Origin: a virus
Lineage: Duplodnaviria; Heunggongvirae; Uroviricota; Caudoviricetes
Virus record (IMG/VR): IMGVR_UViG_2778261139_000002
Coordinates: 22,595-86,594 of that record
Length of the DNA stretch: 64,000 nucleotides
Direction: 5' to 3' (one strand)
Both the position numbers and the translations under genes were made by a program. The notes beneath the pieces were generated by a model. That model was not told where the DNA came from, made no database searches, and worked only from the letters and a program-made list of their open reading frames with translations. Below are positions 1,549 through 43,085 of this stretch, piece after piece (positions within the stretch are counted from its first letter, which is position 1; every line of letters begins with the position of its first letter).

Positions 1549-4500
1549 ATGGCCTATTCAGAGGAACAGCGTCCTGAGGCGCAACTCGGTAACCAGAATC
1601 GTAACAGCCTGAACATTCAGCAACCCGGCGAAACTGACAGCTATGAAGCATTTTTCTCTGATCCGAATCGCTGGAAGGATAACAGTACGTCGTTCAGCCT
1701 GGGCGATGTATTGCCAACAATGGGTAAAGGTTTCGCCCAGTCCGTCCGGGGAACAGGGGAAATGGCCCGTGGACTCGGTGATGCGATGATTCAGAGCCCG
1801 GTAAAAACAGGGGTGCGTATTTTAAATGAGTTCAGCCGTATGGGGCTGCCGGGTGTCGCAACTGTGCAGGATATTTTTGCCGGTGGCAGCAGGGGGGCTG
1901 ATGAGGTCATCGATACCCTGCCTGATGGCAAAAACGCGGTTACTGATACTGTCGGTAAAGGTCTGAAGGCAACCGGTAAGGCTGTCAGTGATGGTGCTAA
2001 AGCCTCGGATGAATGGCTGACCGATAATATGTCGCCGGGTGCTGTGCGTGCGCTGAATACGCCAATGAGTGAAGGCTATGATGATCCCGCAGTCTGGCTG
2101 ACGAAGGGGATGAATTTTGTCGGTGCCGTTGCGGCAGATGTGTTTGCTGGCGGTGTGGCTAAAAAGGTGGGTGATGTCACACTGCGAAAAATGCTGACCG
2201 CCGGGCTGGAGAAAAAATACATCGCGGCAGGGATGCAGCCGGAAAGAGCCACGGCACTGGCAGCAGACGCTGTCGATAAAAAAATGCCGGATTTATTCCG
2301 GGCGGGCCTGATCACCCATTCCACAGCCAGTGCACAGGGGCAGAGTGCAATGGCGGCAGCAGATGCTGTTCTTAATGCGGATTACTCTGAGCTGGCGCAG
2401 TCACCGAAATTTCAGCAGACGTTTTTGTCCATTGACGCCGACCCGCAGCACGCACAGCTTACTGATCGCCAGAAAATGGACCTGGCAAAAGAGCGTGTGG
2501 CTGATGAGGTGCGTGCGCAACTGGCAACCGATCCTCAGTTGCTGGCTGTGAATGCCATGGCGGCAAAACTGGGCGATGCTCAGTTGCTTAATCTGGCGAT
2601 GCGGGGCACGGCGAATACCGTTAAAAGCGGCATGATCAGAAACGCCACTGAACAGGGGGCGATTAATGCGGCGCAGGGCGGCTATTCACGCTATCAGGAA
2701 AACATGGCACTGCGTGATACCGCCGGAATGGATGTGTCGCCGTGGGAGGGCGTGGCTGACGCAACGATCGAAGGTGCAGCCCTTGGTGCTGCGATGGGGG
2801 CACCATTCGGTGCGGTTGCCGGATATCGTGGCAGACGTCAGGCGGCAGATGAAGCCGCCATGCGTGAGGCTGAAGTCGTACAGCAGGACGACGCAGCCCC
2901 GCAACCAGAATCTGTTGATCCGGTGGCGCAGCATCGTGAATCCATGCAGGGGATGAATCGCGAGCAGCTTCTGGAGCAGTATGCTGATGCGGATATGGCG
3001 ACAGAGGGTGACGCATCCGCAACTCATCGCCGGGAAGCCGCCAGCCAGCTGTTGAATGAACTGGACGAACAGGCGAAGCGACAGGCTGTGATGAATGAGC
3101 TGAAGGCGAAGCCGCGTTCTGAACTGCTTGAGGAATACCGCAGACTCAGCCAGAAAGAGGGGCGCACCGAGACTGAAGAACAACAGTTTCAGGCAATACG
3201 AGAAGTCATTCGCCCACAACAGGAAGTGACGCCGGAAGCACAGTCACAGTCTGAAAATGCGGAGGATGGTAACGGGAGCATTTACCCGACGGTGCGGTTC
3301 CGGGACCCGAATGAAGTCCGCATTGAAATTAACGGGAATGGTGCGTCCAGACCAGCGGAACGCATTGAAAAGGTGCGCCCGGACAACCGTTATTTCACGG
3401 ATGAGAAAAGCGCCATGGGGAGTGATGTTTTCCGTAATGCCGCCGCCACCGGCCTGAAACCGTCCGTAGTGAAGAAAGGCGAGAATCAGTATGCCGTTGA
3501 AATGGATAATCCTGCGTTCTCTGAAAATGTGGCAACGGAAACCATTAACACCCTGGCTGACGGAGAGCGTATTGCTGATGCTGACCCGATGGAGCAGCCC
3601 GCGTTCATGCGTGACCCGCGATTCCGTGGTTTCACGGGGGATGATACGGAGGTACAGGCCCGCCTTGCCCGTGGCAACGCGCCGACGGCGGAGGAGCTTG
3701 TACGTTCACAGATGGCTGAAGGTGATGCCGGTCCGACAGCACAGGAGTTAACTGAGCGTCCGCGTCTGCCCGCCCCCGGCGATATTCATCCCGGACAGGG
3801 ATATCCGTTACCGGGAGAGGTGGCGCGTACGCCGGATGAGAATCAGGCCGGACGTGGTGGTCGTTTTACCACAACCGGTGAGGTTAAGGGCCAGAGTTTC
3901 CAGAAAGGACGCGGCCCGGCACAGGAAAACGCCGCTGGTCGCCAGGGGGAAATACTGGAGGGCGAAACTGTTCGTCGTGGTCTGCCGTCACCGGATGAGC
4001 AGAGTGTTACCGCCCCGGTACGTGAAGGTCTACCGGCTCCTGACATTACACACAATGTCCGCATGCCTCAGCCTGAACAGCTTCCCCGAACTGTTCGCAA
4101 CTCATTACCTGAGCTGGCACAGCAGGCAGAAGTACGCCGACAGACAGGAGAAGTTCGCGACATCCCGCATGCTGAAACAACAGCACATGAGTCTGAAACA
4201 GTTGCTGCTACTGATGGTGAAGGTGCCGCACGCGGAGGTGTTGCCGGGGGCAAAAAAATTGAAGACTTTGGCGAGGAAATTAAAGGGGCAGCCAAACACC
4301 GTTATGCACAGCTTGCTGAAACACTGGGTAAAACGCTGGAAGACAGGGATTATGCCACGCAGCCGCTGAGCAAACTGTTCCCGAAACCGGACTACGCAAA
4401 ACTGGCGAACGAAGGTGCCGATGCTGACACTCTGGCAATGATAGCTCTGTATCGTAGCGATATTCCGGCGAAGACGAAACACAATACGGCAGGCTGGGGG

Positions 4501-13361: not shown

Positions 13362-13698
13362 GATGACCTCCTTATTTGTTTAGTTTATAACCGCCAGTTA
13401 GTAGCTGGCGGTCGGGTGTCAACTGAGCCAAATAAGAAGCTCTGGGCATATTCCCCTTGCGGGTGTTGTATTACGCCTCTCCACCCGACCTTTGTACGGA
13501 TGTAACTATGCCAAATTGCAGGCATAAAAAAGCCGCAAAGCTATCGGGTGCGGAGACCGCTTATTTGTTCAGTGCGATCAGTATGCGATAGCTCTGACGG
13601 ATTTGTCAAATCGTGCAGTAACATCCTTTTCTTCCTTGCCATTTCTCAATGATGACAAAGGGTGGATTCGGATTGGTATTGGGACAAAAGTGAGACAC

Positions 13699-21738: not shown

Positions 21739-22953
21739 ATGAAGATCGTAAAGGCTGAAGTTTTTGTTACCTGTCCGGGGCGTAATTTCGTCACATTAAA
21801 AATCACCACTGAGGACGGTATTACGGGCCTTGGGGATGCCACCCTCAATGGACGTGAGCTTTCCGTGGCCTCTTATTTGCAGGATCACCTTTGTCCGCAG
21901 CTTATTGGTCGCGATGCGCACCGTATCGAAGATATCTGGCAGTTTTTCTATAAAGGTGCTTACTGGCGTCGCGGTCCGGTTACGATGTCGGCCATTTCAG
22001 CGGTTGATATGGCGCTGTGGGATATTAAAGCCAAAGCTGCCAACATGCCGCTTTACCAGTTACTCGGCGGCGCGTCTCGTGAAGGGGTGATGGTTTATTG
22101 CCATACCACCGGTCACAGTATTGATGAAGCTCTGGATGATTATGCCCGTCATCAGGAGCTGGGATTCAAAGCCATCCGCGTGCAGTGCGGAATCCCTGGT
22201 ATGAAAACCACCTACGGCATGTCGAAAGGTAAAGGTCTGGCTTATGAACCCGCAACCAAAGGACAGTGGCCGGAAGAGCAGCTGTGGTCGACGGAGAAAT
22301 ACCTCGATTTCATGCCGAAATTGTTTGACGCGGTACGTAACAAGTTTGGTTTTAATGAACATTTGCTGCATGACATGCACCATCGCTTAACGCCTATTGA
22401 AGCGGCGCGCTTTGGTAAAAGCATTGAAGATTATCGCATGTTCTGGATGGAAGACCCGACGCCTGCAGAAAACCAGGAATGCTTCCGTCTCATTCGCCAA
22501 CATACCGTCACACCCATCGCAGTGGGTGAAGTCTTCAACAGCATCTGGGACTGCAAACAACTGATTGAAGAGCAACTCATCGATTATATCCGCACCACGC
22601 TGACCCATGCAGGCGGAATTACCGGTATGCGCCGGATTGCCGATTTTGCTTCGCTGTATCAGGTACGTACTGGCTCACACGGTCCTTCCGATTTGTCACC
22701 AGTCTGCATGGCTGCAGCGCTGCACTTTGATCTGTGGGTCCCCAATTTCGGTGTCCAGGAATACATGGGTTATTCCGAACAAATGCTCGAAGTCTTCCCG
22801 CACAACTGGACTTTCGATAACGGCTATATGCATCCGGGAGACAAACCGGGTCTTGGCATCGAATTCGATGAAAAGCTGGCGGCGAAATATCCCTATGAAC
22901 CTGCTTATCTACCAGTCGCACGTCTGGAAGATGGCACGCTGTGGAACTGGTAA
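21739..22953 (+). CDS. rspA: Starvation-sensing protein RspA (enolase-superfamily dehydratase)
   Basis: 404 aa from [27 protein letters not shown]; enolase-superfamily composition. Confidence 0.9.
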
Positions 22954-28375: not shown

Positions 28376-28567
28376 TTAAAGACCTGCCGGGATTTCGATA
28401 TTATCCTGGTGAATAACTTTATCGACCGGGTAACAGTTACCGGGAATTTTCTGTTCGGTTGCTGCAGTCATACACTCCTGCATTGTCCTGTGAACACTGA
28501 CTGCAATATCAACTGGCACTCCGGAAACAAGAAAAACTGTCAGAACAAGCGCAAATGCTGAATTCAT
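28376..28567 (-). CDS. ydfD: Small membrane/lysis protein YdfD
   Basis: 63 aa from MNSAFALVLTVFLVSGVPVD; hydrophobic N terminus; immediately downstream of dicB. Confidence 0.7.
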   Translation of the reverse strand: MNSAFALVLTVFLVSGVPVDIAVSVHRTMQECMTAATEQKIPGNCYPVDKVIHQDNIEIPAGL

Positions 28568-28752
28568 TGTGCACATCCTTTTGGCATCAGACGTAAACGA
28601 GCCAGCATTGAAACAATGCATATTTTATTTAATAGCTCCCGTTCTTGTTTTCTCTTGTTAATGGCATCTTCAGTAAATACAGGGTTACTGATAGTGACAC
28701 CAATTTCAAAACAACCTTCAGACGTATTAACGTTTGGTAATAACGTTTTCAT
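28564..28752 (-). CDS. dicB: Cell-division inhibitor DicB
   Basis: 62 aa MKTLLPNVNTSEGCFEIGVTISNPVFTEDAINKRKQERELLNKICIVSMLARLRLMPKGCAQ, recognised as DicB. Confidence 0.8.
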   Translation of the reverse strand: MKTLLPNVNTSEGCFEIGVTISNPVFTEDAINKRKQERELLNKICIVSMLARLRLMPKGCAQ

Positions 28753-28921
28753 TATCGCGTCCTCAACAATGAATTTTGTGATGCAGTGCCTGGTGCCTCC
28801 AGGTGACGTTAACCAGTTAACAATTAACGTCGGATACAGAGAATCCACCCATAACACTGTTTTTGGTTTTAACTGTTCCGCGTGCGCTTAGCCGTATTCA
28901 CCGCATCACAAAATTCACTTT

Positions 28922-28979
28922 AAAAAGGGCGGCAGAGCAGTCACGGAGTAAAACTGATACCGCCAAACGTCACCAGAAA
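28922..28979 (-). ncRNA. dicF: DicF small RNA (ftsZ-targeting sRNA processed from the dicB operon transcript)
   Basis: Minus-strand sequence TTTCTGGTGACGTTTGGCGGTATCAGTTTTACTCCGTGACTGCTCTGCCGCCCTTTTT matches recalled DicF with 3-prime hairpin and U tract. Confidence 0.75.
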
Positions 28980-29238
28980 ATTGATAACAGAGGGCGTTGC
29001 AGCGGGGTTGTCACTTAAGCGTATGGTCAACCTGACAACCCGGTGTCCTCAACGGGGAAGGAATAACCCCGCCATACTTACCGCCGCGCCATTTTGCGGG
29101 TTGCCACAACCGGAAGCGCACGGTCGAATTAAATTTAACGACACCGTACAGTGAGACGAACTTCGCCGTGCGCTTTCGTGTTGTGTGCCTGCTTTTAACC
29201 ACGTCAGGCGAGGTGGTATCCTTAAAATCACCACAGTT

Positions 29239-29814
29239 TTAAGGATTCATTAAGCAATGTCGCAACCACCAATAAATCCGCTTAAGAACATGAAAATTGA
29301 TTACTGGTATAAAGCTCTTACAGTTGTTGGCGCTGCGTTGTTTGTCTTTAATGGAACGTCTTTTTTTGACAGATATCCCGTTGTTCCATTGGGTTTTTTG
29401 TCCTCCGGCATCTTTTTTATTGGTTTGGGGGAGTGGATTAATCACCCTCTCATAGTGAGATTTATTGGTCCTGGAGTTTGGACTCGTGGATATAATCGTT
29501 CTTCGTGCGCACTCGGTATCATCTTCGACATACTTGGTTGTTTCCTGATTGTTACAGGAGTCGTCAAGTTCTTCTGATGTAAAACCGCAAATGGGGCACG
29601 TAACGGGAATTTTGAAAAGCGTTTCTCCGGGTTCCAGAACAAAATTTTCTGCGGTCTGATTTTGCTTCTCATATTTGTGCTCCGCGTCATTGTGAGAGCA
29701 CATTCTTATTCTGAGTGCCTGTTTAAACTCACTGAAGCTGAGAGCTTCTTCGCCTTCGGCAAGGCCTTCGAAGTATTCTTCGTAAGCCTTTTCCATGATT
29801 GTGTCGAAATCCAT
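29239..29814 (-). CDS. YdfB/YdfC-like early protein with Cys/His-rich region; only the N-terminal ~80 codons are convincing
   Basis: Start ATG 29814 coupled to ydfA stop (TGAtATG); beyond ~29577 the frame is antisense to the membrane ORF and K/N/Q-rich, so the true 3-prime end is uncertain. Confidence 0.4.
   Translation of the reverse strand: MDFDTIMEKAYEEYFEGLAEGEEALSFSEFKQALRIRMCSHNDAEHKYEKQNQTAENFVLEPGETLFKIPVTCPICGFTSEELDDSCNNQETTKYVEDDTECARRTIISTSPNSRTNKSHYERVINPLPQTNKKDAGGQKTQWNNGISVKKRRSIKDKQRSANNCKSFIPVINFHVLKRIYWWLRHCLMNP
29257..29577 (+). CDS. Predicted small membrane protein, 106 aa, three hydrophobic segments (moron candidate, antisense to the dicB operon)
   Basis: AAGGA 9 nt upstream of ATG; segments ALTVVGAALFVF, VVPLGFLSSGIFFIGLG, ALGIIFDILGCFLIVTGVV; overlaps the 3-prime part of a minus-strand ORF. 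Confidence 0.4.
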   Translation: MSQPPINPLKNMKIDYWYKALTVVGAALFVFNGTSFFDRYPVVPLGFLSSGIFFIGLGEWINHPLIVRFIGPGVWTRGYNRSSCALGIIFDILGCFLIVTGVVKFF

Positions 29815-29971: not shown

Positions 29972-30163
29972 GCTGACCTCATTTCCCCTTAACGCCGGGG
30001 TAGCGGAACTGTTTGCTGAGAACACCGTGCGGTGTCTTGATGGAGGTAATTTAGTTTTCTCATTATTTTTCGTCAAGGTTTTTTGATGAGAAAACTCAAG
30101 TGTTGGCGCAAGATAAAGCCAATACATTGAAATGTAAGGCTTTAAAATTTTGTGAAGGGATGA

Positions 30164-30571: not shown

Positions 30572-30648
30572 ATTTAGATATCTTAATAACCCTTGACTTG
30601 AGATTCCTTGAGTGATTAGCATTGAGAAAACTCAATATTGGAGGTGCG
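30572..30648. promoter_or_regulatory. Divergent dicA/dicC promoter-operator region
   Basis: 77-bp intergenic region with TTGACT -35-like hexamer and palindrome TTGAGaaaaCTCAA (30612-30625). Confidence 0.5.
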
Positions 30649-36432: not shown

Positions 36433-36684
36433 ATGATGAACATCGAAGAACTGCGTAAAATTTTTTGTGAAGATGGCCTCTATGCTGTGTGCGTTGAAAA
36501 TGGAAATCTTGTTAGTCATTACCGCATTATGTGTTTGCGAAAGAATGGGGCTGCGTTAATTAATTTTGTGGATGCTCGGGTCACGGACGGATTTATCTTG
36601 CGCGAAGGTGAGTTTGTCACTTCATTACAGGCATTGAAAGAGATCGGAATAAAAGCTGGCTTTTCTGCTTTTTCAGGAGAATAA
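36433..36684 (+). CDS. rem: Rem-like prophage protein, 83 aa
   Basis: Size and position match rem of Qin (between hokD and ydfU); sequence not independently recognised. Confidence 0.6.
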   Translation: MMNIEELRKIFCEDGLYAVCVENGNLVSHYRIMCLRKNGAALINFVDARVTDGFILREGEFVTSLQALKEIGIKAGFSAFSGE

Positions 36685-39480: not shown

Positions 39481-39780
39481 AAAAATTCCTTAATACTGAT
39501 AACTTGGCGCACTATACACACGTTCCTGAAGAAAGCTATAGTTTTTTGATGGGGTTGAAGATGGCTGGATGTCTAAAATAAACATTGCTTCATATGTTCA
39601 ACTATGCGTTAATGATTGCGTCGGTTTGAAGAACAGACGATATACGAAGTAGTTTACTAAAGCAGTTCTCATTTCAGGTGTTATTCACTTATTCCTTCTT
39701 TGAGTCTCTCCAATTAAGTACGAAGTCGTTTCTGTTATGCAAACCATTTATGCCGAAAGGCTCAAGTTAAGGAATGTAGA

Positions 39781-39996
39781 ATGTCAAATAAAATGACTGG
39801 TTTAGTAAAATGGTTTAACGCTGATAAAGGTTTCGGCTTTATTTCTCCTGTTGATGGTAGTAAAGATGTGTTTGTGCATTTTTCTGCGATTCAGAATGAT
39901 AATTATCGAACCTTATTTGAAGGTCAAAAGGTTACCTTCTCTATAGAGAGTGGTGCTAAAGGTCCTGCAGCAGCAAATGTCATCATTACTGATTAA
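39781..39996 (+). CDS. cspB: Cold-shock protein CspB
   Basis: 71 aa [71 protein letters not shown]; long 5-prime UTR-like leader. Confidence 0.9.
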
Positions 39997-40277
39997 AATT
40001 CATCGCTCGTCTGTATACGATAACGAAGAAGGCTGATGCCTGAGTAGAGATACGGACAGAGTAGTGAATATTGGATCTCTTTAATAAAAAGTAAGGAGGT
40101 CCAATACATGAAACAATGGCTAGCATATTTGGCAAAATCTTAATCAGGAAAAGTATGCTAACCATTGTGGTGAAGTGCAGGTTTGCTGCATGAATAGTTT
40201 TACAGCAGAAGCTAACTGCTGGCATGGCAAAACAAAGTGCGTAAGTGGATGACTCCCACAAAAAGCACCACAATCTC

Positions 40278-42305: not shown

Positions 42306-42667
42306 GGTAATATTAAATCGGAACATTTACATCGCGGAATGTAAAATTTGAATAAAAAGGACTCTTCCATGAGCCAAAATTCCTGAAATCTTAAGGGTAA
42401 GATAAAAGGTCTTAATCAGAATGACACGTTTTATTAATAAATAAAGCTATTCTTTCATTGCTGTGTTTTTCTTTACAAAAGTAATCCTTGCTATGGGTGG
42501 TTAATCATGCGTTAATGGTGTTCTGGTTTGTTACAAATTTATCTGAAGCAGTCATTGTTATAATTTTATTATTTGTACCTCTTGAGATTTCCTTGTTGGT
42601 TTTTCTCTCTGATATTTTTTTTCGGACCATTCTGCCCAAGGGCTAATTTCTTCAAAAGGTAATAATT

Positions 42668-42880
42668 ATGTCTAACAAAATGACTGGTTTAGTGAAATGG
42701 TTTAACCCTGAAAAAGGTTTTGGTTTCATCACGCCGAAAGATGGCAGCAAAGATGTGTTTGTCCATTTCTCAGCAATTCAGAGCAACGATTTCAAAACAT
42801 TAACTGAGAATCAGGAAGTTGAATTTGGTATTGAGAACGGACCTAAAGGTCCTGCCGCTGTTCATGTAGTGGCGCTTTGA
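42668..42880 (+). CDS. cspI: Cold-shock protein CspI
   Basis: 70 aa [70 protein letters not shown]. Confidence 0.9.
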
Positions 42881-43085
42881 GGTAGACAATATTACAAACC
42901 ATATTCACTTTAGATGCCCGTGTTGTCATGGTTCCCAGTATAGAACATCATCTTTTGATGTTTCTGACATGAATCCTTTCGGGGCAAAATGTATCTTTTG
43001 TAAATCAATGATGATTACATTTGATAATATTTCACAATACTTAAATGCCAGCCGTCTGTCGTTGGATTTAAAAAAGTGAAAATGA

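Follow-up and report, generated by a model that had tools for sequence, protein, structure and literature searches.

The question raised by positions 28376-29238 of a 64,000-nt stretch of viral DNA (Caudoviricetes; IMG/VR record IMGVR_UViG_2778261139_000002, positions 22,595 to 86,594; hereafter the window) is whether its minus strand holds a complete copy of the cluster that codes for the small RNA (sRNA) DicF along with the proteins DicB and YdfD and, if so, how DicF is released from the operon transcript and what keeps the cluster silent. We conclude that this is almost certainly the ordinary, working early-left (PL-like) dicBF operon of a lambdoid, Qin-type prophage of Escherichia coli. 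The cluster is already known, everything essential about it having come from work on E. coli K-12 and on enterohaemorrhagic E. coli. What was observed directly in the window is what each part is, how far the RNA elements are conserved and how they fold, and how operators and promoter are laid out. Coordinates below are those of the window, and features lie on its minus strand unless marked (+).

A reading made from the letters of the window, hereafter the sequence-only reading, had assigned 28922-28979 to DicF with its 3′ hairpin and U tract, and comparison with Rfam bears this out. The DicF family (RF00039, gathering score 48) covers 28978-28927 with 76.7 bits (E 3.6e-15) over model positions 1-52/52, and every consensus pair of the family is formed, with zero non-standard pairs. 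The 53-nt sRNA itself, at 28979-28927, adds one 5′ base to the Rfam span; aligned with K-12 dicF (b1574) it is identical at 53/53 positions, with no mismatch to speak against the assignment, and both target-pairing regions fall within this identity to an experimentally characterised RNA. The terminator hairpin (28964-28928, -15.9 kcal/mol) is followed directly by the U tract UUUUU (28926-28922), as it is in K-12, which gives the sRNA an intrinsic terminator and a 3′ end of the Hfq type. There is only one copy of DicF in the window, and its allele is the commonest (69/121) among the window and 120 further loci that we collected from IMG/VR. Two of these loci (L011 and L111) carry a rare variant of DicF in which the 5′ half is kept and the terminator is another stem-loop (GGCGGCATCTGTTTGCCCATGAACTGATGTCCGCC); L011 is also without the RNase III stem of the leader described below.

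DicF sits inside the operon, upstream of dicB, in the order ydfA, ydfB remnant, leader, DicF, dicB, ydfD. The cluster had been called intact, and every element named for it is present, including a dicB of 62 aa and a ydfD of 63 aa downstream of the sRNA. The dicB gene (28752-28564), encoding a MinC-dependent division inhibitor, matches Pfam PF05358 with 136.8 bits (cut-off 27) and NCBIfam NF049927 with 132.8 bits (cut-off 100); it differs from K-12 dicB at one synonymous position, and the protein is identical. Its stop codon is overlapped by the start of ydfD (ATGA; 28567-28376), the product of which is named 'lysis protein YdfD' by the Prokaryotic Genome Annotation Pipeline (PGAP), matches DUF1482 (PF07358) with 88.7 bits (cut-off 25), and is identical to K-12 YdfD at 61/63 residues, the two substitutions being V6A and E17V. 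The same spacing of dicB and ydfD after DicF recurs at 107 of 111 independent other DicF loci. At the promoter end, the first gene of the operon is ydfA (29971-29816; 51 aa; DUF1391, 96.2 bits), which PGAP also calls on identical DNA. It is followed by a ydfB remnant (29814-29713) in which the first ~34 codons match K-12 ydfB and the open reading frame (ORF) then continues as far as 29239 through sequence that is unrelated; in the PGAP annotation it is a partial pseudogene of ydfB, and phrog_2061 matches residues 1-34 only. The dicBF operon in the K-12 Qin prophage (ydfABC-dicF-dicB-ydfDE) has the same gene order, promoter position, and chromosomal site, but in the window ydfC is replaced and ydfB is truncated or fused, and a full 823-aa exonuclease gene, xis, and int are present where K-12 has an IS2-disrupted ydfE and intQ.

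With these parts, the operon would work as follows. In the lysogen, a DicA-family repressor bound to operators at the promoter upstream of ydfA would keep it almost silent. Once repression is lifted, a single transcript would run through ydfA, the ydfB remnant, the leader that precedes DicF, and DicF itself; RNase III would cut a long stem where the leader begins, to give a 190-nt precursor, and a cut by RNase E at AAU|UUU would create the 5′ end of the 53-nt form. The 3′ end would come either from the terminator of DicF or, on read-through transcripts, which would also bear dicB and ydfD, from an RNase III cut in the helix of the DicF-dicB spacer (a 72-nt form). DicF would then block translation of ftsZ, DicB would send MinC to the septum, and YdfD would cause lysis, so that derepression would end in filamentation and death. 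That the cluster would be toxic on derepression, as the sequence-only reading had it, follows from experiments in K-12.

Endonucleolytic release of DicF had likewise been proposed, and it is established for the identical sequence in K-12, where the 190-nt precursor owes its 5′ end to RNase III and the 53-nt DicF owes its 5′ end to RNase E, both species depend on these enzymes, and an internal promoter was not found (PMC10448788). According to a review of Faubladier et al. 1990, RNase III also makes a different 3′ end when the transcript is full-length, and the DicF that results has 72 nt (PMC9438474). Cut positions in the window were worked out from the product lengths quoted in these later papers; a study of RNase III targets (PMC6212723) mentions DicF in passing, and its main text lists no coordinates for a site. 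If 190 nt are counted back from the 3′ end of DicF, or the +813/814 site (PMC10448788) is numbered from a transcription start placed downstream of the -10 element, the cut that forms the precursor would fall at ~29110-29116, and the 3′ end of the 72-nt species is expected near 28908. Each of these expected ends lies inside one of two helices described below. The 5′ end of the 53-nt form has the context AAU|UUUCUGG. RNase E reportedly prefers RN|WUU, a preference credited to Chao et al. 2017, and the DicF end fits it.

This route from a longer mRNA resembles that of SroC, CpxQ, and SdhX, which likewise arise by early termination and RNase E trimming (PMC9438474); DicF differs in that RNase III also acts, at two long flanking helices, and in that it lies within its operon and not at the end. 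Could DicF instead be a stand-alone gene with its own promoter, the upstream hairpins being incidental? An older study did suggest a further promoter in the operon, but upstream of dicB rather than of DicF (noted in PMC10448788). Such a gene is opposed by that paper, which showed with the identical sequence that both DicF species require RNase III and RNase E and found no internal promoter, and by our promoter scan, which found no sigma-70-like site on the minus strand between 28980 and 29240. A further argument comes from how the leader is conserved, and together these make a separate promoter very improbable.

The conserved, non-coding leader extends from approximately 29197 to 28980. From ~29143 down to DicF it has one mismatch to K-12, the similarity being weaker up to ~29197, and in an alignment of 77 distinct sequences of leader plus DicF the block from ~29197 to DicF has a mean column identity of 92%. 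The sequence just upstream of this block, by comparison, falls into at least three unrelated classes (by locus, the ydfC type in 82, that of the window in 30, a third type in 4, and others in 7). Because the leader is conserved as a block across differing upstream junctions, it travels with DicF as one module, contrary to what a stand-alone DicF gene would lead one to expect. The sequence-only reading had described ~250 bp of structured DNA upstream of DicF; of these, only ~215 nt are conserved leader, and what lies above ~29197 belongs to a different mosaic module.

The leader could also be conserved for what it encodes, its structure being a by-product of small protein genes. ORFs of 63 aa (29202-29011) and 61 aa (29234-29049) are indeed present, and the annotation of phage HannyBb places coding sequences there, for hypothetical proteins of 62 and 29 aa. 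A 1-nt length polymorphism (C4 or C5), however, is common inside these small ORFs among the natural variants (60 versus at least 29 loci), which indicates that the leader is not protein-coding, and one of the HannyBb coding sequences overlaps DicF itself; we regard protein-coding conservation of the leader as scarcely credible. In the HannyBb record (PP925841, our locus L003) the two hypothetical-protein coding sequences stand over leader and DicF at 3667-3960, and DicF is unannotated; these calls are artefacts.

The RNA reading of the leader, on which release from the operon transcript depends, agrees with its folding. The region upstream of DicF had been described as GC-rich with several hairpins. 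The GC excess is modest (52-55% over 28900-29199, against 39-46% in the flanks), but the hairpin claim holds beyond composition, in that 29240-28915 folds at -116 kcal/mol (z -2.76) and 0/100 shuffled sequences were equally stable. Minimum free energy folds and two inverted repeats (I2 and I7) define a long basal stem with a variable apex at 29178-29104 (arms ~29178-29160 and 29126-29104). The basal stem is kept in nearly all of 33 distinct variants and weakened in three rare ones, while the sequence of the apex above it differs in at least 8 versions. The cut expected at ~29110-29116 falls in the 3′ arm, and we infer that this basal stem is the RNase III substrate that gives the 190-nt precursor its 5′ end. 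The hairpin singled out by the sequence-only reading, GGGTTGTCA-N19-TGACAACCC, is a real and perfect inverted repeat (I5) with a 9-bp stem and a 19-nt loop; it had been placed at 29015-29052, ~10 nt off, its true position being 29041-29005 (arms 29041-29033 and 29013-29005). It is nearly invariant among the 77 variants and folds at -14.9 kcal/mol (z -2.0), but it lies within the 190-nt precursor and not at the mapped RNase III site. Another hairpin, at 29073-29051, has a different sequence in one lineage, where it still forms a hairpin of 7 bp.

The strongest structure of the interval is not upstream of DicF, where the sequence-only reading had placed the structured region, but in the DicF-dicB spacer, which it left unmentioned. 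This structured leader of dicB (28926-28753) has a z-score of -5.24, with 0/200 shuffles as stable. It is built on a 19-nt inverted repeat, 95% complementary (28917-28899 with 28788-28770), which extends to a helix of ~30 bp (5′ arm 28926-28899, 3′ arm ~28794-28760) that encloses two inner hairpins (28831-28805 and 28803-28789) and runs from the U tract of DicF to the dicB Shine-Dalgarno sequence GAGGA (28764-28760), 7 nt before the dicB ATG. The spacer is near-identical to that of K-12. A consensus of 51 distinct variants of the spacer retains the helix, in which one C-G pair has become U-G in 11 variants and U-A in 2. The modelled helix fits the published 72-nt DicF made by RNase III, the expected end near 28908 lying in its middle.

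The spacer (28720-28929) also resembles the Rfam family STnc100 (RF02076), aligning over the full 206-position model and having in common with it the outer helix and a CACC-GGAGGCACC-GGCAC hairpin. We rejected membership, as the score of 34.6 bits (E 3e-5, referring to the 2.4 kb searched) is below the gathering score of 47, and we note a resemblance only; STnc100 is a prophage sRNA usually located in the late region of Stx phages, downstream of stx2, whereas the spacer belongs to an early-left operon.

The position of the spacer helix raises a further possibility, one that would add to the operon model and not replace it. On read-through transcripts the helix might mask the ribosome-binding site of dicB, so that an RNase III cut, or melting, would be needed before DicB could be translated. 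In addition to the reach of the helix into GAGGA, its stability, and its conservation through C-G, U-G, and U-A forms of one pair, the 72-nt RNase III product maps to mid-helix, and a partner cut in the opposite arm would leave a dicB mRNA that starts ~25-29 nt before the ATG. The last 7 pairs, over the Shine-Dalgarno sequence, are however formed with the U tract and consist mostly of weak U-G and U-A pairs, and on balance we consider masking possible but doubtful.

What would keep the operon silent? The sequence-only reading had put the cluster under a DicA-like repressor, and control by a member of the DicA family is supported by the repressor gene itself and by candidate operators at the promoter. 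The 135-aa product of 30164-30571 matches NCBIfam NF007257 ('transcriptional repressor DicA') with 239 bits (cut-off 101); in Pfam it matches HTH_3 only, and a peptidase domain was not matched, as suits a lambdoid immunity region of the DicA type, in which the repressor is not RecA-cleavable. It is 57% identical to K-12 DicA, the divergence lying mostly in the DNA-binding helix-turn-helix half, and the adjacent Cro-like protein is 70% identical to K-12 DicC. A promoter scan placed a dicBp-like (PL-like) promoter upstream of ydfA, at 30099-30048, with -35 TTGACG (30076-30071) and -10 TAAATT (30053-30048) at a spacing of 17. The putative operator motif TTGAGTTTTCTCAA occurs with 0 mismatches at 30622-30635, between the repressor and Cro/DicC-like genes, with 1 mismatch at 30086-30099, and with 2 at 30050-30063, the latter two copies flanking and overlapping the promoter. 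The total number of matches to the motif equals chance expectation, and the argument therefore rests on where the close ones lie: all three with at most 2 mismatches are in the two regulatory regions, and matches in the rest of the 64-kb window have 3.

The K-12 operators, of the TTAGTCATAACTAA type, are absent, and TTGAGTTTTCTCAA stands at the same positions relative to the promoters. In K-12, dicBp has its promoter at the same place and the same layout of promoter and operators, with the operator in the spacer and -10 element. Such an arrangement is what is usually seen when the scaffold stays the same and the immunity type differs. The antirepressor gene rem (36433-36681 (+)) encodes a protein identical to K-12 Rem at 83/83 residues (tblastn), and Rem relieves DicA repression in K-12 (PMC10448788). 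The repressor on which it would act is much less similar to its K-12 counterpart DicA.

Several points weigh against the operon model. The repressor is only 57% identical to DicA and its operator sequence is different, so repression is read from the layout. This strain is known from its sequence, and the cleavages, repression, and toxicity come from K-12 experiments on identical or near-identical sequence. For DicF and the K-12 ftsZ mRNA we read the duplex as AGUUUUACUCCG paired to CGGAGAGAAACU across the Shine-Dalgarno sequence, but its energy is not significant, being matched by 39/500 shuffles; the pairing has been established experimentally for the identical K-12 RNA (PMC5069750). An opposed gene between the promoter and DicF, described below, could alter operon transcription relative to K-12. 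Lastly, RNAalifold on the 77 distinct leader sequences found two-sided compensation at 0/63 pairs, and the covariation term was -0.25. Conservation in the leader is too high for such a test to give a signal, and covariation is neither for nor against the fold; we judged the structure by folding individual variants instead, and the support for it consequently comes from thermodynamics, from conservation, from one-sided changes between G-C and G-U, and from swapped modules that still form a hairpin.

Is the operon still used by a phage? In K-12 these genes belong to a cryptic prophage, Qin, and the cluster of the window is located at the Qin site, with rspB and ynfE/F beside it. Its prophage might be decaying like Qin in K-12, the cluster then being a silent relic for which a phage has no further use. 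The carrying prophage, however, spans ~24000-64000 and has an integrase, an excisionase, the exonuclease, an immunity region, replication genes, and lambda-like head and tail genes (~40.7-64 kb) that continue up to the end of the window. On an identical chromosome PGAP gives the order integrase, excisionase, 823-aa exonuclease, ydfD, dicB, partial ydfB, and ydfA, followed beyond ydfA by a helix-turn-helix repressor, a Cro-family gene, a YdaT-family gene, and a replication gene. The 1.6-kb module that contains the cluster is 99.6% identical over its whole length in the deposited phage HannyBb, and parts of it are present in 57 phage records. A silent relic is accordingly unlikely. The cluster looks to be the early-left operon in a Qin-type lambdoid prophage that is apparently complete and resembles an intact relative of the cryptic Qin.

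The order DicF-dicB-ydfD-exonuclease is shared by the phages HannyBb (PP925841), Tritos (OV696610), and mEp460 and by Stx-converting and PPompW phages; HannyBb also shares the replacement of ydfC, whereas most such lambdoid phages have the ydfC-type module instead (68% query coverage). A 2016 survey of ~2,000 phage genomes reported neither DicF nor DicB, and the operon was seen as a feature of defective prophages (PMC5069750). The phage collection of today contradicts this reported absence. Among chromosomes, the module is 100% identical in many complete E. coli genomes, and some part of it is matched in 4740/5426. The same sRNA and operon occur in lambdoid prophages of O157:H7 (the CP-933 and Sp islands), where multiple dicF copies are found (PMC5069750), and one O157:H7 strain carries the allele of the window at 99.9%.

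The remainder of the window comprises the end of a different, POCJ13/Stx-like prophage (1 to ~13.6 kb) and the host genes ynfE/F and rspAB (~13.6-24 kb), which mark the Qin site in K-12. At the edge of the POCJ13/Stx-like prophage, 13402-13490 (-) matches sRNA-Xcc1 (Rfam RF02221) with 69.1 bits. In the prophage that carries the cluster, two matches to the cspA-type thermoregulator, at 39620-40012 (+) (158.8 bits) and 42522-42907 (+) (112.8 bits), point to two prophage-borne cold-shock protein genes; Qin of K-12 presumably carries csp genes as well.

The module that sets the window apart from K-12 lies between the ydfB remnant and the leader. Here the K-12 stretch from ydfB codon ~34 to ~29200, comprising the end of ydfB and ydfC, is replaced by ~520 nt with a gene antisense to the operon, at 29257-29577 (+), for a 106-aa membrane protein with three hydrophobic, predicted transmembrane segments. 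No family was found for this protein in Pfam, PHROGs, PADLOC, or NCBIfam, and PGAP leaves it unannotated. It has 60 homologues of ~100-110 aa, down to 34% identity, in Yersinia, Herminiimonas, Reinekea, and metagenomes, with the invariant motifs IDYWYKA and GLGEWINHPL. In the one diverged E. coli-type copy (locus L027), 7 changes are synonymous and 4 non-synonymous when read in the plus frame; read in the opposite one, the counts are 2 and 9. Judging by these homologues and substitutions, the 106-aa ORF is a real gene. A match of the opposing 205-aa minus-strand ORF to phrog_35040 was set aside, since the substitutions fit the plus frame and the 3′ two-thirds of that ORF are read as its shadow.

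Gene neighbourhoods of the distant homologues were informative only in Yersinia, where the homologue stands tail-to-tail with a prophage helix-turn-helix repressor, beside a YdaS/Cro gene. Just upstream of the 106-aa gene, the scan for a plus-strand promoter gave only weak matches below its threshold. The allele that bears the insert is found at a query coverage of at least 80% in 787/5426 complete E. coli genomes (~15%).

One could imagine that this gene and the spacer helix provide the operon with two safety locks that have gone undocumented. In the first, the 106-aa gene would be expressed in the lysogen, and convergent transcription or antisense RNA would damp leaky operon transcripts before they reach DicF; in the second, the ~30-bp helix would keep the ribosome-binding site of dicB shut until RNase III cuts it. 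We think it rather unlikely that both operate, but if they did, the output of DicF and that of DicB could be set separately.

DicF, DicB, and YdfD are textbook prophage-encoded inhibitors, and the same DNA is present in many sequenced E. coli genomes. Against this familiar background, the coordinate map drawn here ties the published 190-, 72-, and 53-nt products to conserved RNA helices, and it draws attention to a conserved but unannotated gene for a membrane protein that ~15% of complete E. coli genomes carry within the operon. Least ordinary of all are this apparent antisense gene and the masking of the dicB ribosome-binding site that the spacer helix may bring about. For the lambdoid phages that carry it, the dicBF operon probably still works as an early function rather than being just a domesticated relic.

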